Sequence record: NZ_CP072340.1
From: a plasmid
DNA: 64,000 nt
Direction: 5' to 3' (one strand)
Below the pieces are notes generated by a model, which was not told where the DNA came from, searched no databases, and saw only the letters and a list, made by a program, of their open reading frames with translations. A program made the position numbers and the translations under genes. Shown here in pieces: positions 14,728-33,885 of the stretch. How positions within the stretch are numbered: the stretch's first letter is position 1; each line of letters opens with the position of its first letter.

Positions 14728-16320
14728 CTACATCTTCCACTTTGGTTTTGAGATAATAACTTTGCTCGTAATGTCATTGTTGTCGGATACATTCTGCTGA
14801 CTATTGTTCTTGGGAGATGTGGGCAAAGGTATGTTGTCTGTGTTTTTTGAGAATGAATTCTTATAAGAACGGGGTTCTGATATATCATCTACTGATTTAC
14901 TTTGCTGTATGGCACCATGCTGTGCCTCTTGCCCTATATCCTCTTTTTCCTCCTCCGGTGGAGCAAGGGTAAGTGCAATTCGCCTATCCAGTTCGGCTGC
15001 CTCGCCTTTGAGCGTGCGAAGCTCTTCTTCCTTTTTCCAAGAGCTGCCCGCAATGTTGGTGTAAACGTCTTTATTGGCTGCGACCTTTTCCATCTCCTTT
15101 TCGTGCGACTCTATTACCTTCGGGATACGCTCCAAGGCATTGATAAAGTTCTGGCAAGCAAGTTTCGGATCGGATGCCAGCTTACCGTTATTATAGGTAT
15201 AGTAGATACTCTCCTGCCCCTTCACAAAGAAACGATTTACAGAGCAATCAAACAAGTCCTTGGAAGTGCTCTCCGTCTTAACCATAATAGAAAAGCCATA
15301 AATCTCACCGATTTTGTTGTATTCCCCCTTGGTGCGTGCTTTCTCGTCTATTTCCTGCAGACGTGCAGCAATGGCCTTGATATCGGTGCTGTCTTCCACA
15401 CCTTTGATAGTCAGCTTATTGATAGGCACACCTTCCTCATCACGCTCCACACGCTTCTCAAAGAGAGCCAAGTCAGACTGTGCCTCCTTGACTTTGTCTG
15501 TATGGAAAGACACGGAACTCTCAATCTCTGCCAGCTTGCCCGTTGCGGCATCACGCTCACGGAGAAAGTTCTTGCGCTCTGATTCCAAGGTGGTAATCTT
15601 CTTATCCAATCTTGCTTTTTCCAAAAGGTCGGTATTGCCTGAAAGTACTGCTACATATTCTGAAAAGTTCATACCGCTGTCCTCGTCCATCGATCCCTCG
15701 TCAATGGTACGGCTCCCTAAAGTGTTCGTCTTTAACTGGTTGATGAAAAGCTGCTTGTTGTGCAGCAGGTTGAACTTGTAACTGTCCAACGAGCGTTCCA
15801 CGGCATAAATAATCACATCGACCTTGTTGTCGGCAAACTCCTTGGCAACAAGATTACCTTTACGGATGGCACGCCCGTTACGCTGCTCTAAGTCCGATGG
15901 TCGCCACGGCGTGTCAAGTTGATGGACCGCTACTGCCCGCTGCTGGGCATTCACACCTGTGCCCAACATGGACGTAGAACCGAAGATAATGCGAATATCA
16001 CCACGGTTCATCGCATCTACCATTGCCTTCTTTGCTTTCTCGTTCTTGCACTCCTGAATGAAGCGTATCTCATAAGATGGAATATGATAGTCTTCTACCA
16101 ACTTTCTCTTGATTTCCGAATAGATATTGAAGTCTCCACCAGGCTTGTAAGTACCCAAGTCTGAGAAAACAAACTGCGTTCCTTTCTGTGCATCGTACTT
16201 TTGGTAATAGTCATTGAGCATTTTGGCACAGTGACTTGCCTTGTTGTCGATATGATCTGAGTAAGCATTTTCATCAATCATGCGTAAATCAAGGCTCATC
16301 TTCCTCGCATAATCAGTCAT
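14728..16320 (-). CDS. SNF2-helicase C-terminal domain protein = 3' fragment of the split N6-methylase/helicase gene
   Basis: Helicase motifs GSTSMLGTGVNAQ...QRNGRAIRKGN; begins MTDYARK, the same residues that end the 5' fragment at 27.7 kb; in-frame stop 9 nt upstream of ATG. Confidence 0.8.
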   Translation of the reverse strand: MTDYARKMSLDLRMIDENAYSDHIDNKASHCAKMLNDYYQKYDAQKGTQFVFSDLGTYKPGGDFNIYSEIKRKLVEDYHIPSYEIRFIQECKNEKAKKAMVDAMNRGDIRIIFGSTSMLGTGVNAQQRAVAVHQLDTPWRPSDLEQRNGRAIRKGNLVAKEFADNKVDVIIYAVERSLDSYKFNLLHNKQLFINQLKTNTLGSRTIDEGSMDEDSGMNFSEYVAVLSGNTDLLEKARLDKKITTLESERKNFLRERDAATGKLAEIESSVSFHTDKVKEAQSDLALFEKRVERDEEGVPINKLTIKGVEDSTDIKAIAARLQEIDEKARTKGEYNKIGEIYGFSIMVKTESTSKDLFDCSVNRFFVKGQESIYYTYNNGKLASDPKLACQNFINALERIPKVIESHEKEMEKVAANKDVYTNIAGSSWKKEEELRTLKGEAAELDRRIALTLAPPEEEKEDIGQEAQHGAIQQSKSVDDISEPRSYKNSFSKNTDNIPLPTSPKNNSQQNVSDNNDITSKVIISKPKWKM

Positions 16321-16427
16321 TAAGAATTAAGGGAAATAGGGGGAAACGCAAGGAATGTAACTATTTGAAATAATATCATTTAGCATTTTCTTACTATTTT
16401 GAGGGTAAGCAAGAACGAGCATCAAAC

Positions 16428-16495
16428 GGCAGGAGTTCCGTTACCAAATCGTAACCCATCAGGGAAAAAGCAAAAAGGGGTTACGAATTGAATGT
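16428..16495. repeat. conserved left-end block with inverted repeat CGTAACCC..(19 nt)..GGGTTACG (candidate attL/integrase site)
   Basis: Near-identical to 33816-33885. Confidence 0.6.
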
Positions 16496-17831
16496 AAACA
16501 ACTGTGTCATAGGTTTTTATTCTTCATCTTTCATTATTCTGCATCGCTCAGGAATACTTGTTCGTATGTACCTTTGCAAGCAAAGGAAATTTAGAAAAAA
16601 CGACAGAAAAATGAAAGAAAACAAACTCAAAGTATCGTTCTTCGTTCAGGCGAAACGAACCGACAAGAAAGGACTTGTGCCTGTCATTGGGCGAATCTCC
16701 GTTGGCAGAACCCATTCGGGCTTCTCCACCAAGTGTAAGACTCCGCTCGCTCTTTGGGACAGCCGTAAGCAACGGCTCATCGGTAAGAGCAGCATGGCTG
16801 TGTCCGTCAATCAGAAACTCGGCGAATGCACCGCACTTATCCACGCACGCTTTCACGAACTCAGTGAAAGGAAAGAAACTTTCACAGCCACAGACGTGAG
16901 GGATGCCTATCAAGGACAAATCCACCGCCAAACCCTGCTCTTGGAGAGTTTCGGGGAGTATCTCACACAGACAAAGGAGCGCATAGGCATTGATAGAGCT
17001 TTAAAGACATTCAAACTCCGTACCTACCAGCTATCCCTGCTTCGTGAGTATGTGCAGAAGAAGCACAAAGTAAGCGACATTCCACTCTCACAGCTGGACA
17101 AAGCATTTATCGAGGGCTTCGAGTATTATCTCACCATTGACCGAAAGCTGAAACGCAGCAGCGTATCGAGTGCCTTATCCACCTTGCAGACCATCGTCCG
17201 CATGGCGGTAAAGAAAGGTGTGCTGGACTTCTATCCTTTTTTGGGATACAGTTACGAGCGACCAAAGGGTGAACCAAGAAGCATTACGCAGGAAGAACTT
17301 GAGCGCATCATCGAGTTGAAGATTGAATGGGAGAACTATCGTATTGTCCGTGATTTGTTCGTCTTCTCCTGCTTTTCAGGGCTTGCCATCTCCGATGTCC
17401 GCAATCTGAGAGAGGAAAACATTGTCTTGGAAGAAGGCGAACTCTGCATCAAGGGCAGCCGAATGAAGACCAAAACTCCGTATCGTGTACAGGTACTTCC
17501 TCCTGCTTGGGCGATAATGGAGCGTTACAGAGGAAAGCGTGCAGGCTTTGTCTTTGACGTACCGACTACCGACATTATCCTCAATGGCATGCACCACATA
17601 CAGAGAAACATCGGCATGGAAAGTCCGCTGACCTTCCACATGGCTCGGCACACCTTTGCGTCGCTAATCACACTCTCGGCAGGTGTACCTATCGAAACGG
17701 TGAGCCGTATGCTCGGACACACCAACCTGAGAACAACACAGGTATATGCAGCGGTTTCCTCCGAAAGAATCCATCGGGACATGCAGATAGTGCAGCAGCG
17801 CATACAAGATACATTCACCTTAAAACTTTGA
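16488..17831 (+). CDS. tyrosine integrase, first of pair (true start probably 16611 MKENKLKV)
   Basis: HMARHTFASL...GHTNLRTTQVYAAV; ORF-track N-terminus overlaps conserved noncoding end repeat. Confidence 0.85.
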   Translation: MNVNNCVIGFYSSSFIILHRSGILVRMYLCKQRKFRKNDRKMKENKLKVSFFVQAKRTDKKGLVPVIGRISVGRTHSGFSTKCKTPLALWDSRKQRLIGKSSMAVSVNQKLGECTALIHARFHELSERKETFTATDVRDAYQGQIHRQTLLLESFGEYLTQTKERIGIDRALKTFKLRTYQLSLLREYVQKKHKVSDIPLSQLDKAFIEGFEYYLTIDRKLKRSSVSSALSTLQTIVRMAVKKGVLDFYPFLGYSYERPKGEPRSITQEELERIIELKIEWENYRIVRDLFVFSCFSGLAISDVRNLREENIVLEEGELCIKGSRMKTKTPYRVQVLPPAWAIMERYRGKRAGFVFDVPTTDIILNGMHHIQRNIGMESPLTFHMARHTFASLITLSAGVPIETVSRMLGHTNLRTTQVYAAVSSERIHRDMQIVQQRIQDTFTLKL

Positions 17832-17835
17832 CCTC

Positions 17836-19104
17836 ATGACACGTAGTACATTCAAGACACTCTTTTATATCAATCGCTCCAAAGAGAAAAAGAACGGCAA
17901 ATGCCCGATTATGGGACGCATCACCATAGACGGTGAGCAGGTGCAATACAGCACGGGCAAGGAAATCGCTCCCGAACTTTGGGACAGTCGTAAGGGACGA
18001 TGCAAGGGTATAGGCGAAGAGACAAAGGAAATCAACCGCTATTTACAAAGCAAAGAGGAACAAGCCAAAGCGAAGTATCAAGAATTAGTCTGGCAACGTG
18101 GCTATATTACCGCTGAGTTGCTGAAGCGTGAACTCATGGAAGAAGACAAGCCCAAAGGTTTTCTTATGGAGGAAGCACGACTTTTCATAGAGGAAAAGCG
18201 TCCTTGCGTAGGAATAACGGTAGCCAAGCCGACCTTTGCCAACTACATCTATGCCACACAACTCATTGAGGCTTATTTGCGTGAACGCTTGGGGCTGGAG
18301 GATATTCGCTACTCATCGCTTGACTATGGTTTCATCGAGGGGCTGGACTTCTATCTTAAATCAGAGCGCAAACTCTCCCTTGCCACCATTCAGATTGTTG
18401 TCATTTTCCTGAGGAAACTCATCGGCATAGGTCAGCAGAAGAAGTATATCCGCATCGATCCGTTTGCAGACTACAAAGCAGAACTTCCACACCGCACAAG
18501 ACGTTATCTCACTACGGAGGAACTACAACGAGTATTGCAAACACCCATCATTGACAGACAATTCGAGCGAGCAAGGCAACTATTCCTTTTCTGTGCCTTC
18601 ACCGGTTTGGCTCGTGTAGATATGCAACGGCTCAAACCGAAGCATATCATCTATAATGCTGACGGCACGGCGGAAATCCGCATCAAAAGGCAGAAAACAG
18701 ACGTGGAAGCCATCATTCCACTCCTGCCCATTGCCACGCAAATCCTTTCGCTCTATATCAAGGACAAGAAAGCAGACGACTTGATATTCCCCAATCTCAC
18801 AATAAGGAAAGCATCCTTTGCGTGTGTGAACATCGGGCAGATATGCCGGATAGAGAAAGGCTTGACCTTTCACATGGCTCGCCACACATTCTCAACCACG
18901 ATTTGCCTTTCCAACGGCATCTCAATGGAAACGCTCAGCAAGATGCTCGGACACAGCAATATAGGTACGACACAAATCTACGGAAAGATAACCGACCACA
19001 AGATACAAGAGGATATGACCGCACTCACTGACAGGGAGCATTCTGTATTTGAGGGTTATTGTGAGTCGATAGCACGGCAGAACGTTCCATTGCAACAAGC
19101 ATAA
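17836..19104 (+). CDS. tyrosine integrase, second of pair
   Basis: MGRITIDGEQ arm-type N-term; HMARHTFSTT...GHSNIGTTQIYGKI. Confidence 0.85.
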   Translation: MTRSTFKTLFYINRSKEKKNGKCPIMGRITIDGEQVQYSTGKEIAPELWDSRKGRCKGIGEETKEINRYLQSKEEQAKAKYQELVWQRGYITAELLKRELMEEDKPKGFLMEEARLFIEEKRPCVGITVAKPTFANYIYATQLIEAYLRERLGLEDIRYSSLDYGFIEGLDFYLKSERKLSLATIQIVVIFLRKLIGIGQQKKYIRIDPFADYKAELPHRTRRYLTTEELQRVLQTPIIDRQFERARQLFLFCAFTGLARVDMQRLKPKHIIYNADGTAEIRIKRQKTDVEAIIPLLPIATQILSLYIKDKKADDLIFPNLTIRKASFACVNIGQICRIEKGLTFHMARHTFSTTICLSNGISMETLSKMLGHSNIGTTQIYGKITDHKIQEDMTALTDREHSVFEGYCESIARQNVPLQQA

Positions 19105-19156
19105 AAAGGAAGTAATTACCAAACATTTATTATTCACGATTGAAAACCAAACGATT

Positions 19157-19624
19157 ATGAAAGAGAACAACAAACAGGAACTTTCTTACTTTCGATTGAA
19201 ATTAAGAAGTTATATGAGTGAGCATCACCCCGAAAAATTGCACGACACGGAGTTTATCACCACACGAGCAGACATGGCTCTCACTGCCTACTGCGATGCT
19301 GTGGCACAAGGTTTTTCGCACCTCGAAGCAGAGAACATAGCAAGTGAGGTGTTGTATCAAGGTTTGCACTTTTCCAAGTACGACACGCTTGTTTCTGTCT
19401 TAGAGAACGAGTTTGAGAGGGAACTGCCTGCACCACTCCCTGAGAAGCTTGCACCCATATTGTTGTCGAATGAGGCTGTTCAAGCCACATTCGACAAGTT
19501 CGGTTTGACGGACACATTTGCTTCTGACGAGCAATACGACCGTCTTTACACCGAACTCACAGGCACGATTGTGCTGCTCATCGAGAGCAATCATTTGCCA
19601 ATAATCGGTCAGACGGAGGGGTAA
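19157..19624 (+). CDS. conserved hypothetical protein of Bacteroides integrative elements (homolog at 36507..36977)
   Basis: ~85% identical paralog in element 3. Confidence 0.6.
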   Translation: MKENNKQELSYFRLKLRSYMSEHHPEKLHDTEFITTRADMALTAYCDAVAQGFSHLEAENIASEVLYQGLHFSKYDTLVSVLENEFERELPAPLPEKLAPILLSNEAVQATFDKFGLTDTFASDEQYDRLYTELTGTIVLLIESNHLPIIGQTEG

Positions 19625-19714
19625 GTCCAAAGGCGTTGTAAGCAAAGGCACACGCAAAGTCCCTGATGCCGTTTCTTATCGTGCAAAGGTACAACGGCAG
19701 CTAATCTGCCCTGA

Positions 19715-19761
19715 CAAGGTCAAGTCCTGCGGATGGAGAGAAGAATCTCCACCGCAGGATT
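19715..19761 (+). terminator. hairpin TCCTGCGGATGGAGA..TCTCCACCGCAGGA + T-tract
   Basis: Read directly; conserved copy at 37078-37121. Confidence 0.6.
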
Positions 19762-19959
19762 TTTCTTTTTCAAGGTGGTATTGCCATTTTCAATAGCCAT
19801 GCGGTCGTATTCATCTCTCCCAACCTTGCAGAGCAGGGCTGCCGTAGAGAGTATAGGCACGACAAGAATACGGCATACTCAGGCTCTTTGGACGCAAGGC
19901 GTAACAACCAACAACAGATAGGACTGACGATAATACGGACAATCTGTTGTTTGTACAAT

Positions 19960-20080
19960 TTGTTGTCATGACTATCTATTGTCAAAACTATATATCGTCA
20001 AAATAATCTATCGATAAAACTATCTATCGACACTTCGACATCTCGATTTGTCGAACTATCGAATTATCGATAAAACAACA
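19960..20080. repeat. iteron-like TATCGA/ATCGAT repeat array
   Basis: ctatcgataaaactatctatcgacacttcgacatctcgatttgtcgaactatcgaattatcgataaaac. Confidence 0.6.
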
Positions 20081-20303
20081 AAATAATAAAAGGAACGAGC
20101 CGGCACCTCATCTCATTACCGCAATAACACAGATGGATCTCCTTTGGTCTTTTCTCTTGTTTTCTCTCTATTTCCCTGCTTATCCTCATTTCTTGCAGCG
20201 GTGCTTCCGAGGGTTTACTTTTGCACTTGATAAGTACGGCAATGGACTGCATAACAGTTTGTTTGCCGAGTAACAATAAAGTAATCAAAACAAAATTAAG
20301 GCA

Positions 20304-20573
20304 ATGAAACTCATTATCATCGACCGCAAAGCGTGGGAGCGACACCACTCCGAATTTGCAGACTTTATCCACAGTATCGAACAACTCATCGGCAATCCGC
20401 CCGAAACGGACGAATGGCTTGACAACGAAGCCGTGTGCAAGCGTTTGGGCATCAGCAAACGTACCCTGCAATCATACAGAGATACGGGGAAAATCCCTTT
20501 CTCAATGATTGGACACAAGTGCTATTACAAGGAGAGCGACATCACGGAGTTACTGAACGCAAACAATGAATGA
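20304..20573 (+). CDS. Xis-like helix-turn-helix protein
   Basis: AVCKRLGISKRTLQSYRDTGKIPF; paralog 37670..37948. Confidence 0.65.
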   Translation: MKLIIIDRKAWERHHSEFADFIHSIEQLIGNPPETDEWLDNEAVCKRLGISKRTLQSYRDTGKIPFSMIGHKCYYKESDITELLNANNE

Positions 20574-20576
20574 ACT

Positions 20577-20891
20577 ATGACAGAGAACGAAATCATTACA
20601 CAGCAAGCCCCTCAGATGCAGATGTTTGCACAACTGATGGAGGGCATCTTAAAGAAACTGGAGCGTTATTGCGCTACCGCCCGTCCGATGCTGGGCGGAG
20701 AGGTTTACCTCACTGGCGAGGAGGTTTGCAGCCAATTACGGCTCAGCACACGCACGCTCCAAGAGTACAGAAACTTAGGAACACTTCCTTTCTACAAAAT
20801 CGGAGGGAAGATACTTTACAAACAGAGCGACATACAAACAATGCTTGAAAGGCATTATAACGCAATACCCAAGAAATTATGGCAAGAATAG
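20577..20891 (+). CDS. Xis-like helix-turn-helix protein
   Basis: EEVCSQLRLSTRTLQEYRNLGTLPFYKIGGKILY; paralog 37952..38266. Confidence 0.65.
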   Translation: MTENEIITQQAPQMQMFAQLMEGILKKLERYCATARPMLGGEVYLTGEEVCSQLRLSTRTLQEYRNLGTLPFYKIGGKILYKQSDIQTMLERHYNAIPKKLWQE

Positions 20892-21385
20892 ATGAACAAA
20901 GGAAACAGCGTCTGGAACAAGCCCTTCGAGATATGGGCAATTATGGCGTTAAGCTCCGCAAGCCAGAAGAGTTGCCCGATTTTGATCAGCCCATAGATTA
21001 TGAAGAGGAAAAGAAAAGATTTGAGCCTGTTAAAGTTGAGGAACAAAATGACAAGGAGAGTCACAAGGACTATTCTCAACCGTCCAATCAAGAAACAGAG
21101 TTGTCACCAAAGGAAAGGGCTACTTCTACTGAAGAGAATCATCAACGAATGGGAAAAACAAGGGACAGGAAGCAATTATCCGAGTTTCAGGGGAAATATC
21201 TCCAGCCCTTTCGCAACAGCCACCGCAAAGCCGTGTATGTATCAGAGGAAACTCAACGAAAGTTGGACTTCGTGGTGAGGAAAATCGGTGAGCAGGGAGC
21301 AAGCGTTTCAGGATATGTGGAGCAGGTGCTTCGAGAACATCTCGACCAATACAAAGATGATGTGGAAAGATGGCGGAAACTCTGA
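20879..21385 (+). CDS. DUF3408-like protein (TraB/TraC-related C-terminal domain)
   Basis: N-term MARIDEQRKQRLEQALRDMGNYGV resembles TraB 61333..61857; C-term ..VSGYVEQVLREHLDQYKDD matches TraB/TraC C-termini. Confidence 0.55.
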   Translation: MARIDEQRKQRLEQALRDMGNYGVKLRKPEELPDFDQPIDYEEEKKRFEPVKVEEQNDKESHKDYSQPSNQETELSPKERATSTEENHQRMGKTRDRKQLSEFQGKYLQPFRNSHRKAVYVSEETQRKLDFVVRKIGEQGASVSGYVEQVLREHLDQYKDDVERWRKL

Positions 21386-21394
21386 AGTACTGCA

Positions 21395-21595
21395 TTCCTC
21401 GAATGCAAGCCTACGCCGAGTTACTGTATTCAGTGAATGCAGTAACACGGCATGGGCTTATAATCCCATTTTCTACATCAGCAAGGTGTGTCTTTGTCCG
21501 ACAAACTACCGTTTGTCCCACAAAAACCCTTGCCCCGAAGGGGATTAAATCACTCCAAAGTCGTGATTAGACAACAAACAAAACAAGTTAAGATT
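21395..21595. promoter_or_regulatory. oriT-like conserved block upstream of MobA-like gene
   Basis: aaggtgtgtctttgt..tttgtcccacaaaaacccttgccccgaagggga..ctccaaagtcgtgattaga shared with 38335-38577 and (inverted) 59986-60110. Confidence 0.5.
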
Positions 21596-22021
21596 ATGCC
21601 TAAATTAGAAATAGCCAACAACAACCGCTACGGTCATCGTAGGATAGAAGAAGTGCCACGCTGGGACAGATGGGACACCCGTATGCCAGATGTGAAAGAC
21701 CAACTGCGAGCCATCGACCTGTACAACAAGTCGGGGGCAGTGAGCAAGTCCGATTTCGTTCGTGCCCGTATCCTTGGAGAGAGATTCAAGGTGATAATGG
21801 TGGATAAGTCCGCAGTTGAGTATTACCGCAAGCTCTCTGAACTCACAGCCCAAGTACATAAGATTGGCATAAACTATAATCAAGTCGTCCGCTTGATGCA
21901 CCTTTATACGGCAGAGAAAAGTGTAAAAGCTTTGTTGCAGGAACTTATCCAACTAACAAAAGAACTCACTACCTTCCAAGAGAAAGCAGTGAGTTTAACC
22001 ATTGACTATCGGGAGAGATAA
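21596..22021 (+). CDS. MobA-like relaxosome accessory protein
   Basis: Homolog of backbone mobA (59566..59985) and of 38578..39006; ORF-track start 21488 lies in conserved noncoding block. Confidence 0.7.
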   Translation: MPKLEIANNNRYGHRRIEEVPRWDRWDTRMPDVKDQLRAIDLYNKSGAVSKSDFVRARILGERFKVIMVDKSAVEYYRKLSELTAQVHKIGINYNQVVRLMHLYTAEKSVKALLQELIQLTKELTTFQEKAVSLTIDYRER

Positions 22022-22037
22022 GGAATGTGCGATGGAA

Positions 22038-22523
22038 TTATATTCCCCCAAGCATTTTTTGCAGCAGATTGCCCGATGTTCGTGTTATTTGGAAGTCTAT
22101 GGTTTGGTTTTCTACTGTTTTTATGTCGGCTGGCTTGAAACGACAAAGGGCTTCCTGACGCTCCAATGTGTCACGGACGGAAGAAAGGTCCTGTATCTGC
22201 CCTGCAAACGTTCCATAGGGAGATTGCAGATAAATCATTTGTCTGTTTACATTGTCGGGGCGTTTATTCTCGAACTTTAATAAGATGGTTATATCTGTGC
22301 TGTCCGCTGGTGTTGCGGTTGTTGCTCCGTGTACGGTAGCCGTTCCCGAATACACTTGTTTATAAGGCAGGAAATAGGCTACGGCTAACAGACAAAGCAA
22401 AACAGCTCCTATGGCAGTAATACCATAACGAACGAGAGATGAGGGTATCTGCCCCACGATGCTGCGTACTTTCTCGCTGCGGAGCTCAAAACTCCGTTCC
22501 TGTTTCTTTTCCTGGTTTTCCAT
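22038..22523 (-). CDS. short HlyD-family-like membrane protein (periplasmic adaptor N-terminus, 161 aa)
   Basis: Cytoplasmic N-term, one TM helix, then ...SGTATVHGA like HlyD/CvaA N-termini; 1-nt gap to upstream ABC gene. Confidence 0.4.
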   Translation of the reverse strand: MENQEKKQERSFELRSEKVRSIVGQIPSSLVRYGITAIGAVLLCLLAVAYFLPYKQVYSGTATVHGATTATPADSTDITILLKFENKRPDNVNRQMIYLQSPYGTFAGQIQDLSSVRDTLERQEALCRFKPADIKTVENQTIDFQITRTSGNLLQKMLGGI

Positions 22524-22524
22524 A

Positions 22525-24738
22525 TCAGTTACCCAATTCTAATTGATTCTTCACTAAGGCAAAATATTTACCACGTTTAGCAGTCAGATCCTCGTGTGTA
22601 CCTACCTCTACAATTTTACCTTCATCCAAAACTACAATTTGGTCGGCATCGCGAACAGTGGAAAGGCGGTGTGCCACTACTACAACTGTTTTTCCCTTGT
22701 AGAACTCCGAGAGGTTTTCTGTAATGGCTCGTTCATTGTTGGCATCGAGGGCATTGGTCGCTTCATCCAGAAAGACAAACATTGGATTCTTATAGACTAC
22801 CCTTGCTATCAAAATGCGTTGTCGTTGTCCCTGACTGATGCCCTGTCCGTCCTGTCCTATCATCGTGTTGTAAGCCAAAGGCAGGGCTTCGATGTAGTCA
22901 GCGATGTTTGCCACACGGGCAGCATGGCGGATACGTTCGATGTCGGGTTCATCATCCGATATGGCAATATTCCTCGCAATGGTATCGGAGAAGAGATACC
23001 CCTCCTGCATTACCGCACCGCATTGGCTTCGCCACCAGCCGAGATTATATTCATTCAGATTGGCACTGCCGACTTGAACGCTTCCTTTCAGAGGTTCATA
23101 GAACCCCAACAAGAGTTTAACGAGTGTGGTCTTTCCGCTTCCACTCGCCCCCACGATTGCGGTTACTTTGCCGTTAGGTATGGAGAGATTGATGTCTGAG
23201 AGAATATCTTTTGGGCTGTAGATGTCGTATTTGAAAGAGAGGTCTTTTATCTTGAGGGAATGTCCCTCAAGTGTTTCGTCAATGTAGGCATTCCGTGTTC
23301 TTTTCGCATTCTCCTCGTTAGTCTCTGTATGAATTTCGTTCATACGGTCAAGGCTGATGCTCACGTCTTGCCAAGAATAGATAAACTGAATGAGCTGTTC
23401 CACGGGGCTGTTGAGCTGTCCAATGATGTACTGCACTGCCAGCATCATACCAAGCGTCATATTGCCTTGTATGACAGAAGTTGCAGCAAAAACGGTAATC
23501 AAGATATTTTTTATCTCGTTGATGGTGATGCTTCCTGCCTGTTGTATTTGCTGAAGATTAAGACTTTGCAGATTGACCTTGAAAAGGTCGGCTTGCACGT
23601 CCTCCCATTCCCAACGCTTGCGCTGCTCACATCCCTGCAACTTGATTTCCTGCATACCACCTATGAGTTGGTAGGTAACGTTGCGGTTTCGCCCTGCCTG
23701 CTCGAAATATTTGTAGTCCAACTGCCTGCGCTTTTTGAGAAAAAGGATAATCCATCCGGCATAAAGCGATGTCCCCGAGAGGAATACAAGGAAGATGCCA
23801 AGATTATAGACTGCAAGGACGACACCGAAGACAAGGAAGGTGAAGAACGAGAATAGCAGGCTCAGACTGCTTGAGGTGAGGAACTGCTCCACACGTCGGT
23901 GGTCTTCAATACGTTGCAAGAGGTCGCCCATCAGTTTGGTGTCGAAGAACTTCATCGGTAGTTTCATCAATTTGATGAAGAAATCCGAGATGAGCGAGAT
24001 ATTGATACGTGTGGAGATGTGCAGGAGTATTTTGGAGCGGATAAAGTCGATGGCGGTACGGCTGAAAAGTAGCATCATTTCTGCCAAGAGCACTAACCAT
24101 ACAAAGCCTATATCCTTTCCTCCTATACCTGTATCAACGATGGCTTGAGTGAGGAAGGGGAAAATGAGTTGCAGGAGCGAGCCGAGCAACAGACCGAGAA
24201 TGAGTTGCGTAAAGAATCTCTTGTACTTTTTGAGATAGTTCCAAAGGAACTTCGCGCGGCTTTGAGTCGGTGCTGTTTCTGTATCGTTTTGAGCATAGAA
24301 CTGTTCTGTCGGTTCAAGAAGAAGGGCGACACCTTTCTCCTCACCGTTGGTCTTAGTACTTACCCAATGCTCGCAGAACTCCTCTTGGGTATAGGAAACA
24401 AGTCCTTTGCCAGGGTCGGCAACATATACGGTATATTTTCCTTTTTTGTGCTTTTTTATTTTATAGACAACAACAAAATGATTTTGATTCCAATGAACAA
24501 TGCAGGGCAAAGGAACTTCAAATGCAAGTGTATCAAAACTTAATCGACCTCCAACAGTCTTGAAACCGATAGTTTCTGCAGCCTTACTGATACCAAGCAA
24601 AGAAACTCCCTCTCGATTTAATGAACAAACTGTTCTAATTGAATCAATATTAAAATCGCGACCATAATGCTTAACTATCATTGCTAAGCAAGAAGGTCCA
24701 CAATCTTTTGCGTCACGTTGTCTAACTAAGGTGTACAT
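22525..24738 (-). CDS. peptidase-C39-domain ABC transporter (double-glycine peptide-processing exporter)
   Basis: C39 motif DCGPSCLAMIVKHYG; 6 TM region; Walker A GASGSGKTT, LSQGQRQRILIARVV, FVFLDEATNALD. Confidence 0.9.
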   Translation of the reverse strand: MYTLVRQRDAKDCGPSCLAMIVKHYGRDFNIDSIRTVCSLNREGVSLLGISKAAETIGFKTVGGRLSFDTLAFEVPLPCIVHWNQNHFVVVYKIKKHKKGKYTVYVADPGKGLVSYTQEEFCEHWVSTKTNGEEKGVALLLEPTEQFYAQNDTETAPTQSRAKFLWNYLKKYKRFFTQLILGLLLGSLLQLIFPFLTQAIVDTGIGGKDIGFVWLVLLAEMMLLFSRTAIDFIRSKILLHISTRINISLISDFFIKLMKLPMKFFDTKLMGDLLQRIEDHRRVEQFLTSSSLSLLFSFFTFLVFGVVLAVYNLGIFLVFLSGTSLYAGWIILFLKKRRQLDYKYFEQAGRNRNVTYQLIGGMQEIKLQGCEQRKRWEWEDVQADLFKVNLQSLNLQQIQQAGSITINEIKNILITVFAATSVIQGNMTLGMMLAVQYIIGQLNSPVEQLIQFIYSWQDVSISLDRMNEIHTETNEENAKRTRNAYIDETLEGHSLKIKDLSFKYDIYSPKDILSDINLSIPNGKVTAIVGASGSGKTTLVKLLLGFYEPLKGSVQVGSANLNEYNLGWWRSQCGAVMQEGYLFSDTIARNIAISDDEPDIERIRHAARVANIADYIEALPLAYNTMIGQDGQGISQGQRQRILIARVVYKNPMFVFLDEATNALDANNERAITENLSEFYKGKTVVVVAHRLSTVRDADQIVVLDEGKIVEVGTHEDLTAKRGKYFALVKNQLELGN

Positions 24739-24804
24739 TTATGATATATAAAACTATACTAAAAATACTATACTAAAGTAAATATTAAATTTGCAAAAAT
24801 ATTA

Positions 24805-27141
24805 TCACTGCAAATTCAATCGTTTCTGATTGCTTTCATTGGTGTTCAATCTTCTAAATGTATCCTTAAATCCATTGAATGTATATTTAATGGTCAGTAA
24901 AAGAAAGCGACTATCGAAATCAGGAGTTGTTTGTACTTTGATATTATCTATGAATACATTTGTTTTTGATATAGATTTATGTAATAAATCGTTACCTCTC
25001 AAGATAATTTGTAAACGATTATCTTTGAAGAAATTTTGCCGTATCCAAAAAGATAAACCATACTTAGGTGATTCCAATACTCCCAAGAAACCATTTTTTG
25101 AAGAGTAAGATAAATCTATAGACGCCATCATTTGCTTAGTAATGTCAAATTGATTGACCAAGGTAAATGCAATATTTGGATTTCTAGGTGCATAAGTATC
25201 TAAGTATTTAATTTTTGTTGGAATATAACGAAATGAAGCATTATAAGCAAATCTATATATACCGAATTTATCTGAATAACTTGCATTAAACAACCATGTA
25301 TTGTAATCTACATTGACGGGAGAATTCAATAGAGCTCCATTTAATTCAGAATTTTCGGTGAACTTCCACAAAACAGCATTAGCGTCATGTATGTATCTTC
25401 CCTGTAAGACAAATTTATTCTTCCATACCATAGATAAGGAATAAATGTATCTATCATTAGATTTAAGAGATGAATTACCTTTTTCATATAAATAAGGATT
25501 TATATAATGCAAAAGAGGGGAAATATCCCTAAACATTGGTCGTGAATTCTGAGTAATAATACTTCCAATGAATAGCAAATCGGGATTTATCTGCCATTGG
25601 GCTGTTATACGAGGAAAGAGTTTAAAGTATGTATCAGTAATACTATTTGTTTTATTTTGCTCATATTCAGAATGAAAAATGCTTCCTCTAACCCCTGCGG
25701 TGATAAAGAGTTTATTCCATTTTTGATTTATAGTTGCAAATAAACTGAGTTCATCATCTTGAAGATTACTCGTTATATTATAGAATGGAGTCGTAGTATT
25801 CTCAAAAATGTAATTTGAATAGCCTTTGTTCAGAATAGAATTTCCTTGAAAGCCCATATTTAGAGAGAAACCCTTTTTCGAGTTGTAGTCGTACTCTATC
25901 TTTGTATTAAATGCGTTATAGTCATTTTTACCATTTATCCAAGAACGGTTTTTACTGTTTGATACTAAATCTATCTCTGATTTTGTTTTAGCGTAGAAAT
26001 AACCGCCAGAAACAGATAGTTGTTGCTTATCTGTCATTGTATAATTTACCAACAAATCGGCATTGGCAGAAATATTACGACTTCTTTCATCTTGATGAGT
26101 GTTGGAATATAGTGTATTCAGACCATATTCATAGTTATACTCATCTCCTTGGGTATTCGCTTTCTTATTGGAGATATTTATATCACCCTGAAATGTTATA
26201 TTAAATTTTTGATTGGGTCTGTAACTGAAACTTTCGACAATATGGTGAGCAGGCTTGGAAAGAATTTCATTATTGTAAGAGATGGAAGACCGTTCCGTTT
26301 TCCCTTTAGGGCTTAATACATCGTATTGATTGGTACCTGTGTTATCTTCATTGAGGTATGAAAAATTATAAGACAATAAATTATCCCATTTCTTTTTTGA
26401 TAAAGAAATTCTCAATACATCCTCTTCTGTATACCGCCGTCCGAACAAAGAATTATGTTCCACCTGAGCAGAAAAGTAATCTGTTAATTGTTGGTTTGTT
26501 GTAATAGAAATAATACAACCATATTGAGCCGAATATTTAGCTGGTGGATAGTAATTAACATTTACCGTTTTTATTTGTTCAGGACGGAGCGTACCGATTC
26601 TATCGTATGATTTTTGTTCTACTCCATTCAATATATACAAAGGTGTGCCTCCTGATATAGGTACAACTCTTCCACCGGTCGCCAACATTCCTGGAAGAAA
26701 AGCAAGAACATCTGCAACTTCGGGTAATTTTTTTAACTCTGATTTTGAGACGTCTATTTCAAATGTTCCTTCTGAAACTTTATAGACTGCTCTTTTTCCT
26801 TTAACTATAACCTCTTGCAACGTGTTGGAATTCGGTTCTAACTGGATAACAGTTGGAAGAGGAATAGAGACTCGTGCTTGTTTATATCCCATAAATCTGA
26901 CAGCAATAAATTTACCATCAGTTCCTTCTTTGCTTATATTGAACACCCCTTTTGAATCAGTTGTTGTACTTTTTAAAATTTCTCCTTCTTCTGTAATTAA
27001 TAGTACGGTGGCATAGGGTAAAGGTTCTTGTACCTCATCAACTACGGTAGCTGATAACATCAATGTATCTTGAGGTACTATTGCTGCTTGAGATTGAAAA
27101 CTGAAAACAGAAATTAAAATTAAAATTAAAACACGAAACAT
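24805..27141 (-). CDS. outer-membrane beta-barrel protein (TonB-dependent-receptor-like, N-terminal carboxypeptidase-regulatory-like domain)
   Basis: Signal peptide MFRVLILILISVFSFQSQAA; LSATVVDEVQEPLPYATVLLITEEGE; C-terminal aromatic-rich barrel strands. Confidence 0.7.
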   Translation of the reverse strand: MFRVLILILISVFSFQSQAAIVPQDTLMLSATVVDEVQEPLPYATVLLITEEGEILKSTTTDSKGVFNISKEGTDGKFIAVRFMGYKQARVSIPLPTVIQLEPNSNTLQEVIVKGKRAVYKVSEGTFEIDVSKSELKKLPEVADVLAFLPGMLATGGRVVPISGGTPLYILNGVEQKSYDRIGTLRPEQIKTVNVNYYPPAKYSAQYGCIISITTNQQLTDYFSAQVEHNSLFGRRYTEEDVLRISLSKKKWDNLLSYNFSYLNEDNTGTNQYDVLSPKGKTERSSISYNNEILSKPAHHIVESFSYRPNQKFNITFQGDINISNKKANTQGDEYNYEYGLNTLYSNTHQDERSRNISANADLLVNYTMTDKQQLSVSGGYFYAKTKSEIDLVSNSKNRSWINGKNDYNAFNTKIEYDYNSKKGFSLNMGFQGNSILNKGYSNYIFENTTTPFYNITSNLQDDELSLFATINQKWNKLFITAGVRGSIFHSEYEQNKTNSITDTYFKLFPRITAQWQINPDLLFIGSIITQNSRPMFRDISPLLHYINPYLYEKGNSSLKSNDRYIYSLSMVWKNKFVLQGRYIHDANAVLWKFTENSELNGALLNSPVNVDYNTWLFNASYSDKFGIYRFAYNASFRYIPTKIKYLDTYAPRNPNIAFTLVNQFDITKQMMASIDLSYSSKNGFLGVLESPKYGLSFWIRQNFFKDNRLQIILRGNDLLHKSISKTNVFIDNIKVQTTPDFDSRFLLLTIKYTFNGFKDTFRRLNTNESNQKRLNLQ

Positions 27142-27231
27142 TACAACAAGAAAGTTATAGAGATATAAAGTTGTAAATAAAAATAAAATGTCTGACTATG
27201 AACGAAAGAGCATAGTCAGACACAGAAACTC

Positions 27232-27408
27232 TTAAGGCTTTGTTGTTACTCTGTCAATGATGACAGTCCCATCATCCTTAATCGTTGTTGTAATGGTGGT
27301 TGTTGAACCATCTGCATTGATAATGGTTTTAGTTGCAGTTACATCACCGCCACCATTGATAAAACCCATTTCGTCTTTTGAAAAGACTTCTAAAGCTAAT
27401 GCTTTCAT
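27232..27408 (-). CDS. 58-aa double-glycine-leader peptide precursor (bacteriocin/microcin-like), not in ORF track
   Basis: Translated by hand: MKALALEVFSKDEMGFINGGGDVTATKTIINADGSTTTITTTIKDDGTVIIDRVTTKP; leader LxxxxSKDEMxxIxGG; 90 nt upstream of OM-barrel gene, same strand as C39-ABC. Confidence 0.6.
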   Translation of the reverse strand: MKALALEVFSKDEMGFINGGGDVTATKTIINADGSTTTITTTIKDDGTVIIDRVTTKP

Positions 27409-27649
27409 AACTAAATAGAATAAAGTTTATACTTGGCTCGGTATTCTCCGAACCGTTAATTAAAATTTGGATGTCAGAGTTTCGCACGATGTGCATATTA
27501 ACAGACATTCAATTGCAATATTACGAAAAGAAAACGAGAAAAACAAATTTTTCGCCACGTTTTTTGCGATTTCCATTATTTTGTGTCGTTTTTCATAATG
27601 AAATGACTATCTTTGCAACTATAAATTAAGTGTTCATTGAAGCATTGCA

Positions 27650-27770
27650 AAATAAAGAAAGGGAAAGAAACTCGCTCGTTTCCATCTCGTAACCCATTTA
27701 CCCTTTATTCATTCTTATTTTATTGATTATCTGAAAGATACAATATTCTTGAATCTTTTACGGGCGTAAT
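27650..27770. repeat. conserved right-end block of element 2 (near-identical to 48692-48800)
   Basis: aaagggaaagaaactcgctcgtttccatctcgtaacccatttaccctttattcattcttattttattgattatctgaaagatacaatattcttgaatctttt. Confidence 0.7.
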
Positions 27771-30700
27771 CCGTTGCGATGAGCATTTTTGCCCTTCCCT
27801 CGCTCTCACTCAGAGGTGCTCGTCCCAAGATTGTGGCATCTCCACTCTTGGCAAACTCCATCAACTTGCCGATAAAAACCTCCTGCTCGGGCGTGGGCGG
27901 TATGTTATGCAGTATCTCGTTCTTCTCGGGGCGGTCGATACCGATGTCCTTGGCTGTGCGAAAGTCGCAAATCTCCGCATAGAACGAGGCAAGCTCCGGC
28001 ACTTTGATAAAGGTGCGGAACCGCTCTTTCTGAATGATGTCGTTTGTGATGGAGAACTCATAGTCAGTTGATTTCTTGGCAAAGACTGCTGCCCAAGCAT
28101 CAAAACTGTTGATACCCTGTTTTTCTAATGCCTGCGGACGGAGATACTTGAACAGAAGATACAACTCCGTCAGGCTATTGGAAATGGTCGTTCCCGAAAG
28201 GAAAGTGGCTCCCAAATCCTTGCCGGACCTCTCCTGTATGGTACGAATAGCAAAGAGCATGTTTAAGGCACGCTGTGAACCATCAGGATTACCCAAGCCC
28301 GACACACGGTCGTGGCGGGTATTGAACATCAGGTTCTTGAATTGATGGCTTTCATCTACAAAGAGGTGGTCGATACCCATCATCTTGAAGTCTACAGCAT
28401 CGTCCTTTCTTTCGGCGATGCTGTCCTGTATGTTCTGCAACTTGGCTTCAAGCGTCTGCTTGCGTTTTTCCAGTCCTTTGAGCATGCCACGGGAGATGTC
28501 TCTTCCTTGTTGCCGCAACACTTCGAGATTTTCTTCCACGGAGTCCAGTTCCTTTTGCATAATCGCCTCCTGTATCTCGAAGGCCTGCGGTATCATGCCG
28601 AACTGTTCATGCGTAAGTATTATGCAGTCCCAGTCGTTGTTCTTGATGTCGTTGAAAATGCGTTGTCTGTTCTGCTTGTTGAAATCATTCTTGCCCGGAT
28701 ATAAGATCCTCGCATTGGGATAAGCCTTTCTAAAGGTGTCGGCAATGTCAAAGACGTTTGCCTTCAGTCCGATAATCATTGGCTTGTTTGCCAGTCCCAA
28801 TCGCTTCATCTCGTAGGCTGCCGTACACATGATGAGTGTCTTGCCCGCCCCCACCTCGTGATCACAGATGCCTCCTCCATTGGTCTTCAGCATCCATACG
28901 GCATCCTTCTGGCTCTTGTAGAGGTCGGCAATGCCCAACCGTTTGAGGTCAAGGTCGGGAAAAGTCTGATGTGTGCCGTCAAAGTTCGGTCGCACAAAAC
29001 AGTTGAAAAGGCGGTTGTACCTGTCGGAGAGTTGTTGTTTGAAGGTATCGGGTGTGCGTCCGAGCCAATCGACAAAGCCCTGTCTGATTTCCTCAATCTT
29101 GGCATTCGCCATCTGGATGGCATGTCCGTCCCTTACTTTGATGGTCTTGGTCTCTCCCGTAACCTTGTCCGTCACTTCCTTGCTCTTGTTGATGTCGGGA
29201 ATGGTATTGTGCAGGGCATGCTTTAAGAGATTGATACCGTCATAGCGGCGGAACTCACCCTGTACGGCATACTTGTGCCAGATATTGGCATTCTTATGGT
29301 CACATACAATGCTGTACTCGTCCATGTTGGAATGGTAGGATACACCAATATCCGTCCCGAAAAACTCCGAGGCAAACCTGCCATAGACTTTGGCAGGTAT
29401 CCAGCGTTCACCGAGATTAAAGTCAAGGTCTGCAAATGGAATGGGTGTTGGCGTGGCTGCACGCAAAGCGGCAAGGCTCTGTTTGGCTTCCTCATGGTCT
29501 GGATGGTCCAAGAGCCACGACTCGATACGCTCCGCCTTTTCTATTACATTGCCCGAAATGAACTTGTCCGCCACTTCGTAGGCATTCTCTTCGGGATTGT
29601 AATAGATGCGACCTTCCAAGGAAGAAATGATGTCGCTTTCCTCCATATCAGGTAAAAGCGAACTCATGTAGTCAAGTTCCACCGCGCCGTACTTGTTGAG
29701 CGATGCACCCAGTGCCTCCATCGGGTCTGCGGCAACGGTCAGTTCCGTGGTGGAAAATGCCGTAGGATGGTCAAAGATGTCCGCCTTGATGTACCTGCCG
29801 TTCTCGGAGCGTTCCAAGAACAGCATTTCCACGCCTGTAGCATCCATCTTGATGATGTCGGTGTTAGCCTTTTGGTTAAAGTAGCCCCAGCGTGCAACAT
29901 AATCATCATACAGGTGGTTGAGTCTGCTGCGGTCCTCCTTGTCTTCTGCATGGTTCTCTGCCTCGTAGTCATAGAGACGATGATAGCACTCCCGTATCTC
30001 GATATAGCTTTTTAGTCGGGAAAGCTGCGCATACGGCAAGTCCATCGGATTAAAGGTCGGATGTCGCTTTAAGTCAGAAAGAAACCCCACCTGCCCTTTC
30101 TGCACGACAATGGAGCCGTCTCTTAAGTGGGAGTCCGGCGATGAGAGAAAGGGACGGGGTGAGGAATCAAACTCCTTTTTCACCTCCGCTATCGGTTGTG
30201 GTTTTCGCTCTTCGGCTTCATTCATGAAGTCAAAGAGAGATGGCTCACGATATGAGGGGGAGATGATCTTCTTATTGCCCTTTCCTCTGGTTTTACGCCC
30301 TGGAGTGACTGTAGGTTGTTTTTCGCTCTCCTTTCCTGCTTTGTTTTCCGGTTGCTTTTGAGCTGTCTGCACCTGCGATTTTGGAGCTTCTTTAATCTCG
30401 CTGTTCACGCGCGTTACTTCCTGCGTCCAGAGATTGTATTCCTCCGGAGCGAACAGTGAAGGCTGCTCCGTTTCCTGTCGCTCGTCCATGCCGTTCATCA
30501 CCGGATGATGGTCATCGTCGAAATAGACCATCTGTCCGTTCATCTCCCGTGGAGACTCCACATCGGTACGGATTTCCTTCACATCCTGCTCATACTGACG
30601 GTGAAGAGTCAATGTAGGCACGCCTTCAGGAGCAGGCTCATAGGAAATGTGGTCGATAGCCTGCACGATTTGCCTATTAGCCTTTTCCCTGACTTGCTCC

Positions 30701-32460
30701 CCAGCCTTTTCTACTTGAACTTCCTCCTTGTCCTCTTCCGTGGAGAGCTTCTCCTCCATTGGCTGAGCCAGAACTGTCGGCTCGGCTTTTTTCTTGATTT
30801 CCTCAATAATCGGCTCCTTGGTGTATTGTCCTTGGACAATCTCCTCCAGTTCTGCAATCTCGTGCAGTTTCTTGGGGCTAAAATATAAGTCTCGCTCAAT
30901 GCCTAACCCATGTATCTTGACTTCCTCCATTTCGTCAAGCGACATATTGCCCAGTTCCCAACCATAGCCCATCGTGACAGCACCGAAACCGATGCGGGTC
31001 TTCGGGTCGTACTCCAAGAGGTAGGCCGTATATGCCCCCATCGGGAAGAAATAGCGTGCGTAGGCTATTTTATCGCCAATGAGTTCCTTCTCCGTGCTGT
31101 ATAGTTTGGGCAATTGTTTCCTGATGCTGTCGGGCATGAGATTATAGGCGTTATCCGCCTCCTTGTCCGTTTTTGGCTCCTCGTTGGGCAAATCAACCGT
31201 TATACCCAACTTCTGCAGTTGTTTCTCCACTTCTTTCTGTCGTTCCTCTTCCGTCATCGGTATGCCAGTTTCATAGAGCTTTCGGTCAAAGCGTTGCTCA
31301 AATTCCAAGGAGAGTTGTGTTCTGATACTCTCCGCCATATCATCAATGCTGCCATCGAAGCGATACTCCCATGCAGGTTTGCCGTATGGGTCCCTGCCCA
31401 TCGTGCGTTCCGTGGCAATGGTGCGGTGGGCTATGTCCTTCCATTCACCATCAAAGAGCGAGTTGTGCTTGAATACGACAGAGGAACCTTCGGCTATGGG
31501 AACAGACACAGAAGCTACGAACTGCTGTTCGATGCCCTCGCCGATGGTCTTGCCCGACTGCTTTTGCAGGACGATGAGGTCGCTGCCGACTTCCGTTCCT
31601 GCATTCTCAGAGAACATACCCGACGGCAGGCGGAGAGCGGAGATAAGCCGGCTGTTCTGCATCAGATAACGGCGGATGGCTTCGTTCTTCGGGCTGTCCA
31701 GCACACCCTGCGAGGTGATGAATGCCATCAGCCCACCTTCTTTAATGCAGTCCAGCCCCTTTACAAAGAAGTAATTGTGGATGGCTCGTGTGGATTCGCG
31801 TTTGAGAATGTCCTTGCCCTTGCTGTACTCCCGGTCATAGACCATGAAATCACCAAAGGGAATGTTACTTGTTATAAGGTCGTACTTGTCCTTGTCCTCC
31901 AACTCTCCGATGGCTTCAAAGGGGGCTTGGCGGACTATGATGTTGCCTTGTCCATAAGGATGAATGGCTTGTGAGATACGGGCAGTGAGCAGGTCTTTCT
32001 CCATTGCATCGACCATACCGGCCTTTTTCGCAAAGGTCTCAGTAAAAGCTCCCATGCCTGCCGACGGATCCAAGCATCGACGTATGGGAACATCTACTGA
32101 AGAGAGTGCGTCTGCAATGGCATTGACGATACGGGTGTCGGTATAAAAGGACGTGAGCACGCTTGCCTTGATGCTCTCCCAATAACGTTTGGCGGTATTG
32201 GCATCGACGGCATCACGGTAAATCATCTGCTTGAGCCTTTGGGTAGGCTCGAAGAGGTGTTGCTCCGACTTGCTCCAATAACGAATGTCGTCGGGGTTGT
32301 CCGTGCGGTTAAGCACGCATTTCAAGCCACCGAAGCCCTGATAGTCGCGCAATATGCCTTTCTCTGCTTCGGTGGCTTCACGGCGTTCTTTCTCCAAGCG
32401 CAGCACGACACGGATGGCTTCCGTGTTGGCCGCCAAGACTGCTTTCTTATTGTATGCCAT
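27727..32460 (-). CDS. N6-adenine DNA methyltransferase fused to SNF2-family helicase N-terminal half (5' fragment of split gene; last ~10 codons and stop supplied by element-2 end)
   Basis: MTase motif [10 protein letters not shown]; helicase Walker [17 protein letters not shown] box [11 protein letters not shown]; ends ..[16 protein letters not shown] inside the element end repeat. Confidence 0.85.
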
Positions 32461-33735: not shown

Positions 33736-33815
33736 AACAAAAACGAAATCTGCTGAATAATAGCAATTTATGCACTTTATTGCTTTTTATGGAATGGCAA
33801 GGATAGGCGAAAAAC

Positions 33816-33885
33816 GGCAGGAGTTCCGTTACCAAATCGTAACCCAACAGGGAAAAAGCAAAAATGGGTTACGAATCGAAGCTAA
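33816..33885. repeat. conserved left-end block with CGTAACCC..GGGTTACG inverted repeat
   Basis: Near-identical to 16428-16495. Confidence 0.6.

Follow-up and report, generated by a model that had tools for sequence, protein, structure and literature searches.

Why should a gene that is interrupted by a mobile element encode the same six residues on either side of the interruption, with different codons but without a single amino acid change? This question is raised by a stretch of plasmid DNA of 64,000 nucleotides (sequence record NZ_CP072340.1; the whole stretch is called the window here), in which a methylase/SNF2-helicase gene is split by a nested element, termed E2, and the residues TDYARK are encoded at both junctions. 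We find that the TDYARK copy at the 3′ half of the gene is not native but is the element's own att site, which resembles the target. E2 is very probably a Bacteroidota-type integrative mobilizable element (IME) that uses an IntDOT-like reaction to enter a preferred attB site, formed by the TDYARK codons of a helicase gene of conjugative transposons (CTns). This reading builds on the anatomy of the junctions, the site preference, the constancy of the element arms, the exchange of a 5-nt sequence and the conservation of a dinucleotide, all of which are directly observed.

The two open reading frames (ORFs) of 1577 and 530 amino acids (aa) are colinear halves of one methylase/SNF2-helicase gene of ~2,090 aa, as a first, sequence-only reading of the locus had proposed. 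By Pfam, the longer ORF contains N6_Mtase/Eco57I, DUF2958 and the SNF2 N-lobe, and the shorter one Helicase_C. A 729-aa query spanning the junction retrieved >2,500 relatives, and uninterrupted orthologs with 64–99% identity read continuously over the junction into [S/A]LD[L/M]RMI; TDYARKM is retained in 14 of 16 diverse uninterrupted orthologs. The last nine codons and the stop codon of the longer ORF (RFKNIVSFR and stop) are read from the right end of E2, and the shorter ORF starts with M TDYARK MSLDLRMID. TAA TTC TTA directly precedes its ATG, which confirms the in-frame stop noticed earlier. A nested element does indeed split the gene. Between the two ORFs lie 11,406 bp (16321..27726), and the element proper is with ~11,457 bp slightly longer. 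An assembly error at the junctions, which the sequence-only reading had named as an objection to itself, is excluded, as at least 23 contigs, derived from different samples and several cohorts, encode the exact 530-aa product. Both junction types repeat across dozens of independent assemblies, and in >100 across all surveys. The 1577-aa product has an exact match in one contig (GCA_000336235.1), and hence there is no attL series for this backbone. The surroundings of E2 are those of a CTn, with topoisomerase and DUF4099/DUF3945 genes adjoining the helicase gene and a transfer backbone at 56–62 kb of the window (Table 1).

The 18-nt blocks that encode TDYARK at the two junctions, ACGGATTACGCCCGTAAA and ACTGATTATGCGAGGAAG, share 12 of 18 positions. 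They differ at positions 3, 9, 12, 13, 15 and 18, and all six changes are synonymous, so that the earlier count of 13 identical positions and five differences has to be corrected, whereas the observation that only synonymous changes separate the copies stands. At least 12 matches between random 18-mers are expected with a probability of ~2.6e-4, and six random substitutions would all be synonymous with a probability of ~7e-6 (2 of 300,000 simulations); chance is thereby excluded as the source of the similarity.

What the two copies are becomes apparent from the anatomy of the junctions. The attL of the window reads ACGGATTAC-GC-CCGTA-AAAGATTC, which is a native arm (B), the dinucleotide GC, a 5-mer and the element's arm P′, and the attR reads ATG-ACTGATTAT-GC-GAGGA-AGATGAGCC, which is the element's arm P, GC, a 5-mer and native sequence. 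Empty sites have the sequences GCA ACG GAT TAC GCC CGC AAG ATG AGC (L001) and GCA ACT GAT TAT GCC CGC AAG ATG AGC (L002), and the B arms at 45 helicase junctions from metagenomes match this form, AC[G/T]GAT TA[C/T] GC. The sequence ACTGATTATGC, on the other hand, is the fixed left end of the element family and is also present outside the helicase gene; as it is fixed even at unrelated targets, it is element sequence and not target sequence. Each of the six differences can be assigned in this way. The first two (ACG/ACT and TAC/TAT) separate the native B arm from the invariant P arm, three lie within the 5-nt coupling sequence (CCGTA vs. GAGGA), and the sixth (AAA/AAG) separates the P′ arm from native AGATG, because the first two bases of P′ are AA, as opposed to AG in the native sequence. 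The repeat is thus not a fresh target-site duplication, in agreement with the sequence-only reading, as one copy is invariant element sequence and the element has no transposase. A crossover within the shared AGAT was also considered and rejected, since it would require indels of 1–2 nt in every attL.

The constancy of the element ends and the preference for this site were seen in two surveys, which also included a sister element, E1, that is nested in the topoisomerase gene of the same CTn. The genome survey used an alignment of the two IntA proteins of E2 and E1 as query and covered one genome per species. It retrieved 73 loci, from genomes of Prevotella, Segatella, Hallella, Hoylesella, Porphyromonas, Alloprevotella, Phocaeicola and Parabacteroides, and the tandem integrase pair is conserved in these 73 loci. 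In the metagenome survey, contigs were scanned with the conserved right end, which gave 82 junctions (62 E2-type and 17 E1-type ends among them). All 57 E2-type left ends, those of the window and of 56 loci from other genomes, finish with ...TTCCCTTAATTCTTA-NNN-AC[TC]GA[TC]TA[TC]GC, a consensus that was also read as ...TTTCCCTTAATTCTTA-NNN-AC[T/C]GA[T/C]TA[T/C]GC. The TDYARK site of the helicase gene is occupied in 39 of the 56 genome loci, the other 17 being at unrelated targets, and 45 of the 62 E2-type right ends in metagenomes abut the same helicase codons (...ATGCTNATNGCN ACN GAY TAY GC). About 70% of the E2-type insertions are at exactly this site, and other CTns thus carry the element at the same codon. 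The helicases that are hit are 57–100% identical to that of the window, which means that several CTn lineages are targeted. Among the B arms observed are those with ACG, ACT, ACA or ACC, GAT or GAC, and TAT or TAC. The sequence-only reading had considered a long coupling sequence that the element had carried over from a diverged copy of its target gene. The target-like sequence and the site-specific targeting of this gene were recognized correctly; the anatomy is a different one, with element arms and a coupling sequence of 5 nt. As a side observation, the orthologs P0029 and P0040 have TDMARK (GAC ATG GC) in place of TDYARK, and two junctions, L079 and L130 (ACGGACATG-GC-TCGAA), suggest from their sequence that this variant may still be hit.

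E1 repeats the arrangement at another codon block. It splits the topoisomerase IA gene of the CTn at the TTYPRT motif, of which TYPRT is presumably the catalytic-tyrosine motif of type IA enzymes. The N-terminal fragment ends with ...ITTYPRKRF and a stop codon, the C-terminal half resumes with (N)YPRTGSRYIS, and the uninterrupted gene in L002 reads ACG ACC TAT CCC CGC ACA GGC. The attL of E1 is ...ACGACCTAT CC CCGCA followed by AAAGATTTTAG, and its attR is ...ATAAACTAT CC CCGTA followed by CAGGC, which gives a core of TAT-CC-CCG[C/T]A. E1-type elements occupy the topoisomerase site in five genome loci and 14 metagenome contigs, and 14 of the 17 E1-type right ends in metagenomes abut ...ATC ACG ACC TAT CC, the TYPRT codons. 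The IntA proteins of E1 and E2 are 72% identical and the IntB proteins 71%; the ends of the two elements are homologous, the right ends being 85% identical. The pair suggests that a change of the dinucleotide from GC to CC, together with a few arm bases, retargets the integrase.

These data can be accommodated by a mechanism that has been described for the integrase of CTnDOT. In IntDOT recombination, the overlap consists of a conserved GC and a 5-bp coupling sequence that tolerates heterology, and the first strand exchange needs identity of the dinucleotide, whereas the second tolerates heterology (PMC2817482). For E2, the attP core would be ACTGATTAT, GC, NNNNN and AAAGATTC. Its left arm and GC would match the target ACN GAY TAY GC, and the next 5 nt would represent the mismatch-tolerant coupling (overlap) sequence, with nicks presumably 7 bp apart and some division of labour between IntA and IntB. 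Integration would generate an attL composed of native arm, GC, 5-mer and element P′ arm, and an attR composed of element P arm, GC, 5-mer and native sequence, the latter giving (M)TDYARK MSLD...; the stop codon and the ATG at the junctions would be by-products of the element ends. At the helicase site and at 13 of 15 secondary sites, E2-type elements have GC to the left of the 5-mer, and E1-type elements have CC there at all of their sites. Since the amino acid sequence of the target motif is fixed between CTn lineages, only wobble positions distinguish targets from the element arm. The att anatomy and a protein-conserved target thus suffice to produce a synonymous-only pattern without selection on the two fragments in this genome. 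Excision would be expected to yield a circle with the junction ...CTTAATGACTGATTATGC-NNNNN-AAAGATTCAAGAAT... and to leave an empty site ...GCAACGGATTACGC-NNNNN-AGATGAGCCTT..., with neither ACTGATTATGCGAGG nor the element arm ACTGATTAT.

The behavior of the 5-mers agrees with an exchange. In L160 and L162, the 1593-nt ORF of the 3′ half is that of the window except for nt 15, 16 and 18, all of which are in the 5-mer (CCGCA vs. GAGGA), and in L158 it is that of the window with GAGGA included. Beside these 3′ halves, the element ends differ by 9–30 nt per 300 nt. Three changes that cluster while the rest of the backbone is identical are products of recombination and not of divergence. The 5-mers of attL and attR differ in five of 11 paired insertions, namely E2 and E1 of the window, L025, L057 and L064. 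GAGGA is also found in seven helicase attL junctions, in the non-helicase insertion L062, and as P-GAGGA-P′ in L095. At helicase junctions, CCGCA, CCGTA, CCGGA, CCGAA, GCGCA, ACGTA, TCGAA, CAGAA, AAGAA and GAGGA all maintain the coding of Ala-Arg-Lys, and CTGCA and CAGCA are the only 5-mers that do not; the coding of Ala-Arg-Lys by nearly all 5-mers is expected if the elements mostly hop from helicase site to helicase site. At secondary sites, the 5-mer beside P′ is the helicase-type CCGCA in 8 of 16 cases, which shows that the element brings it along. On balance, the GAGGA in the attR of the window looks imported.

Two observations on other insertions may be added here. The attL 5-mer of non-helicase insertions is usually CCGCA and the attR 5-mer usually unrelated target sequence, an asymmetry that hints at a bias in the strand or product that is inherited. 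L095 was examined as a candidate for a circular attP junction and rejected, since BLAST shows a ~60-bp left-end remnant beside the right end; the arrangement at L095:11289-11450 (P arm-GC-GAGGA-P′, the right end abutting the remnant) suggests that an element integrated at an att site already present, or that a tandem scar was left.

Several points weigh against the IntDOT-like integration of E2. There are three candidates for the native 5-mer of this backbone, as CCGTA, GAGGA and CCGCA all occur. L001 had been considered as a proxy for the empty site, but with 99% identity of the protein its DNA is only ~92% identical and cannot fix the native 5-mer, and contigs with the exact protein were used instead; a search of viral contigs for the exact empty site of this backbone gave no matches. 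Neither a circular form nor a matching empty site was found from this exact strain, and the different element variants and 5-mers in identical backbones, which speak for excision in the family, bear on a circle only indirectly. As E2 has no relaxase, we can only infer its mobilization in trans. Finally, the insertion counts overstate the independent events, because a CTn with its insert spreads as a unit. The independence of the insertions rests on the range of helicase lineages, the element variants in identical backbones and the different 5-mers.

Could the two halves still be a working enzyme? It has to be considered that both remain under protein-level selection and that selection has shaped the element ends to supply a stop codon and an in-frame ATG; the helicase, and in the case of E1 the topoisomerase, would then function as two reassembling polypeptides. 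We regard such ends, and likewise continued selection on both halves, as unlikely. In 28 of 57 E2-type ends, an in-frame ATG immediately precedes the P arm, and one occurs also in 6 of 8 E1-type ends, there at a non-homologous position (ATG AAC TAT CC). The break between SNF2 N-lobe and Helicase_C coincides with a domain boundary, and ~30 of the 36 3′ halves with full information are intact ORFs. However, intact halves are equally expected under recent or reversible insertion, and the ATG is replaced by GCT, ACA, ACT, CCT, ATA or TCT in half of the family, including an ATA in the E1 of the window itself. No Bacteroidetes −7 box or sigma-70-like promoter was found towards the 3′ half in the last 350 bp, the sigma-70 scan being a poor model for Bacteroidota, and the 3′ halves of L039, L042 and L051 contain nonsense or frameshift mutations. 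Above all, the att anatomy fully explains the synonymous pattern, and the same end occurs at non-coding and unrelated targets. The suggestion of the sequence-only reading that both halves are selected, with the element donating start and stop, is therefore not needed. A variant to which we give equally little credence is the evolution of "translationally silent" ends, in which arms and imported 5-mers always re-encode the target residues, with an additional in-frame ATG in many ends (ATG ACT GAT TAT in E2-type and ATG AAC TAT in E1-type ends). If this were true, a working two-piece helicase or topoisomerase would exist after insertion, excision would restore the protein exactly, and the element could ride in a CTn without crippling it.

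A chimeric backbone, is considerably less probable still. In this case, the element would have been present here in two diverged CTns, and a homologous recombination within it would have linked the 5′ half of one lineage to the 3′ half of the other, with different alleles of the "duplication" at the two ends as the outcome. The difference between the 5-mers at the two ends would agree with such an event, and the family is common enough for co-resident copies, several loci coming from single genomes. However, the invariance of ACTGATTATGC at unrelated targets identifies it as element sequence and not as a second helicase allele, identical backbones differ only in the 5-mer, and the 5′ and 3′ flanks are similarly diverged from L001 (~92%). 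An old and drifted target-site duplication of a transposase, or an assembly artefact, has nothing in its favor beyond the short imperfect direct repeat and is hardly conceivable, given the two tyrosine recombinases in place of a transposase, the repetition of the junctions in >100 independent assemblies, and the probability of ~7e-6 for synonymous-only differences under random drift.

With E2 as an IME that would use an IntDOT-like reaction, its relation to known systems can be specified. E2 shares with CTnDOT a tyrosine integrase with N-terminal arm-binding domain and attP and attB cores that are similar but not identical, with GC at the left edge of the overlap and then a 5-bp coupling sequence that may differ between the partners and between attL and attR (PMC2817482); the cleavage positions in E2 would be placed by this likeness. 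Unlike the IntDOT system with its one integrase, E2 has two tandem integrase genes and a DUF1896 gene, and it is small and mobilizable, not conjugative, with its preferred site inside a protein-coding gene of another mobile element. Closer in architecture are MTnPi1-3, the "Tyr duo" mobilizable transposons of Prevotella intermedia (Naito et al., 2016, PMC4755523; listed in PMC5704250). These have att sites of the type TTAC/TTGC-N5-AA, their excision as circles was shown by PCR, and a failure to excise is correlated with the second integrase being lost (PMC4755523). E2 and E1 share with them a tandem pair of tyrosine integrase genes at one element end, the host clade and an att layout of 4 nt, N5 and AA, the layout being ATGC-N5-A[A/G] in E2 and ATCC-N5-[A/C]A in E1. 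MTnPi1-3 were reported in genes for "hypothetical proteins" with low specificity, whereas ~70–80% of the E2 and E1 insertions are at one conserved codon block, and a relaxase and a primase of their own are reported for MTnPi1-3, both of which E2 and E1 lack. The likeness is one of architecture and att layout, not of compared integrase sequences, and there is no P. intermedia locus among the 73 loci of the IntA genome survey.

In Firmicutes, IMEs insert in conserved genes of Tn5252-superfamily elements, namely the SNF2-helicase gene, traG and maff2, examples being the tet(O) fragment and IMESp2907 in ICESp2905 (PMC5704250). In both phyla, a conserved gene of the host element, which can be that of an SNF2-type helicase, is disrupted by a mobilizable element nested within it; several IMEs can reside in one conjugative element, and travel in cis with the host element is possible. 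The Firmicutes IMEs use serine recombinases, whereas E2 and E1 have paired tyrosine recombinases and IntDOT-like att sites and belong to another phylum. By this comparison, the resemblance is a convergence of lifestyle and not membership in one family. NBU1/NBU2 and Tn4555 are tyrosine-integrase IMEs that are mobilized by CTns and have preferred and secondary sites (PMC5704250), as E2 has, but they use a single integrase and do not target CTn genes, the NBU target being tRNA 3′ ends with an identical core. A description of IMEs that target CTn genes in Bacteroidota was not found in the searchable literature, whose coverage is incomplete, so that absence is unproven.

Table 1. Position of the split genes, att sites, mobile elements and element-encoded functions in the window
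Feature	Position	Strand	Remarks
3′ fragment ORF, methylase/helicase	14728..16320	-	530 aa; Helicase_C
5′ fragment, CTn methylase/SNF2-helicase gene	27727..32460	-	1577 aa; native to ~27759-27764
Element E2, mobilizable, nested in CTn	16302..27758		~11.46 kb; two tandem tyrosine integrases
attR, 5-nt coupling sequence GAGGA	16302..16306	-	native helicase from 16301 (AGATGAGCC...)
attR = E2 left end: in-frame ATG, P arm, GC	16307..16320	-	ATG 16318-16320; invariant P arm ACTGATTAT 16309-16317, in all 57 E2-type left ends at any target; GC 16307-16308
E2 right-end core arm P′ AAAGATTC	27751..27758	-	conserved right end next (...AAGAATATTGTATCTTTCAGATAATCAATA); in all 82 metagenome matches
attL, 5-nt coupling sequence CCGTA	27759..27763	-	unlike attR 5-mer
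attL, native B arm ACGGATTAC and conserved GC	27764..27774	-	arm 27766-27774, GC 27764-27765
IntA, tyrosine recombinase	16611..17831	+	406 aa, from M42 of ORF starting 16488
IntB, second tyrosine recombinase	17836..19104	+	422 aa
DUF1896 protein	19157..19624	+	conserved directly after integrase pair
Two HTH_17 proteins	20304..20891	+	20304-20573 and 20577-20891
DUF3408 protein, candidate origin of transfer (oriT) block, MobC_2 protein	20879..22021	+	
E2 cargo	22038..27408	-	peptide-export-like locus
Topoisomerase IA, C-terminal fragment	32554..33699	-	
Sister element E1	33690..48799		~15.1 kb; splits CTn topoisomerase IA gene at TTYPRT motif
Topoisomerase IA, N-terminal fragment	48789..49748	-	ends ...ITTYPRKRF and stop
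Host CTn transfer backbone	56202..61857		coupling protein, relaxase, MobC_2, ParA-like protein, DUF3408 protein

The gene content of E2 is that of a mobilizable element (Table 1). IntA and IntB both contain Arm-DNA-bind_5, Phage_int_SAM_5 and Phage_integrase domains (Pfam) with a conserved HxxRH...GH...Y box, and the sole Bacteroidetes −7 box that was found, TACCTTTG at 16569, serves IntA. The DUF1896 protein may take part in recombination, and the HTH_17 proteins, the second of which attains the cut-off for the "excisionase family", are candidate directionality factors; NCBIfam gave only generic integrase and excisionase names for the E2 proteins. A conserved intergenic block (21290-21590) is a candidate oriT, and the next gene (21596-22021) encodes an accessory protein of the MobC_2/Bacteroides MobA-like type. 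In E2, this gene is not followed by one for a relaxase, and both E2 and E1 have only the DUF3408 and MobC_2 accessory proteins; only the relatives L013, L021 and L025 have a relaxase after MobC, which is ~79% identical to that of the CTn. E2, with its candidate oriT and MobC, would be mobilized by the CTn relaxase. The cargo genes resemble a locus for the export of a bacteriocin or peptide, with a 58-aa GG-leader peptide (MKALALEVFSKDEMGFINGG followed by GDVT...; 27232-27408), an outer-membrane beta-barrel protein (OMP_b-brl_3; 24805-27141), a C39-peptidase ABC exporter (22525-24738), which is repeated in 22 related loci, and a 161-aa membrane protein. The cargo of E1 (39195..48418) encodes two S8 subtilases, proteins with Por_Secre_tail (type IX secretion system sorting) and DUF6383 domains, as well as a KAS-III-like enzyme and a TetR regulator.

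Some further features of the CTn were noted. An AbiEi/AbiEii toxin–antitoxin pair and a PP2C phosphatase (12192..14641) lie directly downstream of the 3′ half of the helicase gene, a context that is shared with L001 and L158-L163. A third tandem pair of tyrosine integrases (5976..8511, + strand) is located at the edge of the CTn beside helix-turn-helix (HTH) and primase-like genes; with 32–34% identity to the E2 and E1 integrases and no accompanying DUF1896 gene, it may be the integration module of the CTn itself. In the region 53006..55714, a long ORF of the + strand (883 aa) overlaps with another of the − strand (833 aa); the two contain internal direct repeats ~1 kb apart (families D12 and D18), and the 883-aa product has no Pfam match. 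In L030 and L035 (minus strand), the 3′ half of the helicase gene is broken again after ...HHLDTPW, ~430 nt past the junction, by an insert with a product that by eye resembles a group II intron reverse transcriptase. The database protein P0094 has an N-terminal DUF1896-like segment fused in frame to the helicase from ...SGTTISNSL, which could be a chimeric assembly or a rearrangement of element and helicase gene.

In summary, a puzzling "synonymous duplication" is accounted for by a known mechanism, and annotators are warned that the ORFs of the "1577-aa methylase" and the "530-aa helicase" result from an insertion. More than 150 natural junctions document a widespread family of Bacteroidota elements that nest in CTns via conserved codon blocks, those for TDYARK in the helicase gene and for TYPRT in the topoisomerase gene. 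This targeting parallels, in Bacteroidota, that of the serine-recombinase IMEs of Firmicutes in SNF2, traG and maff2 genes, and the set of junctions represents a natural record of coupling-sequence exchange.

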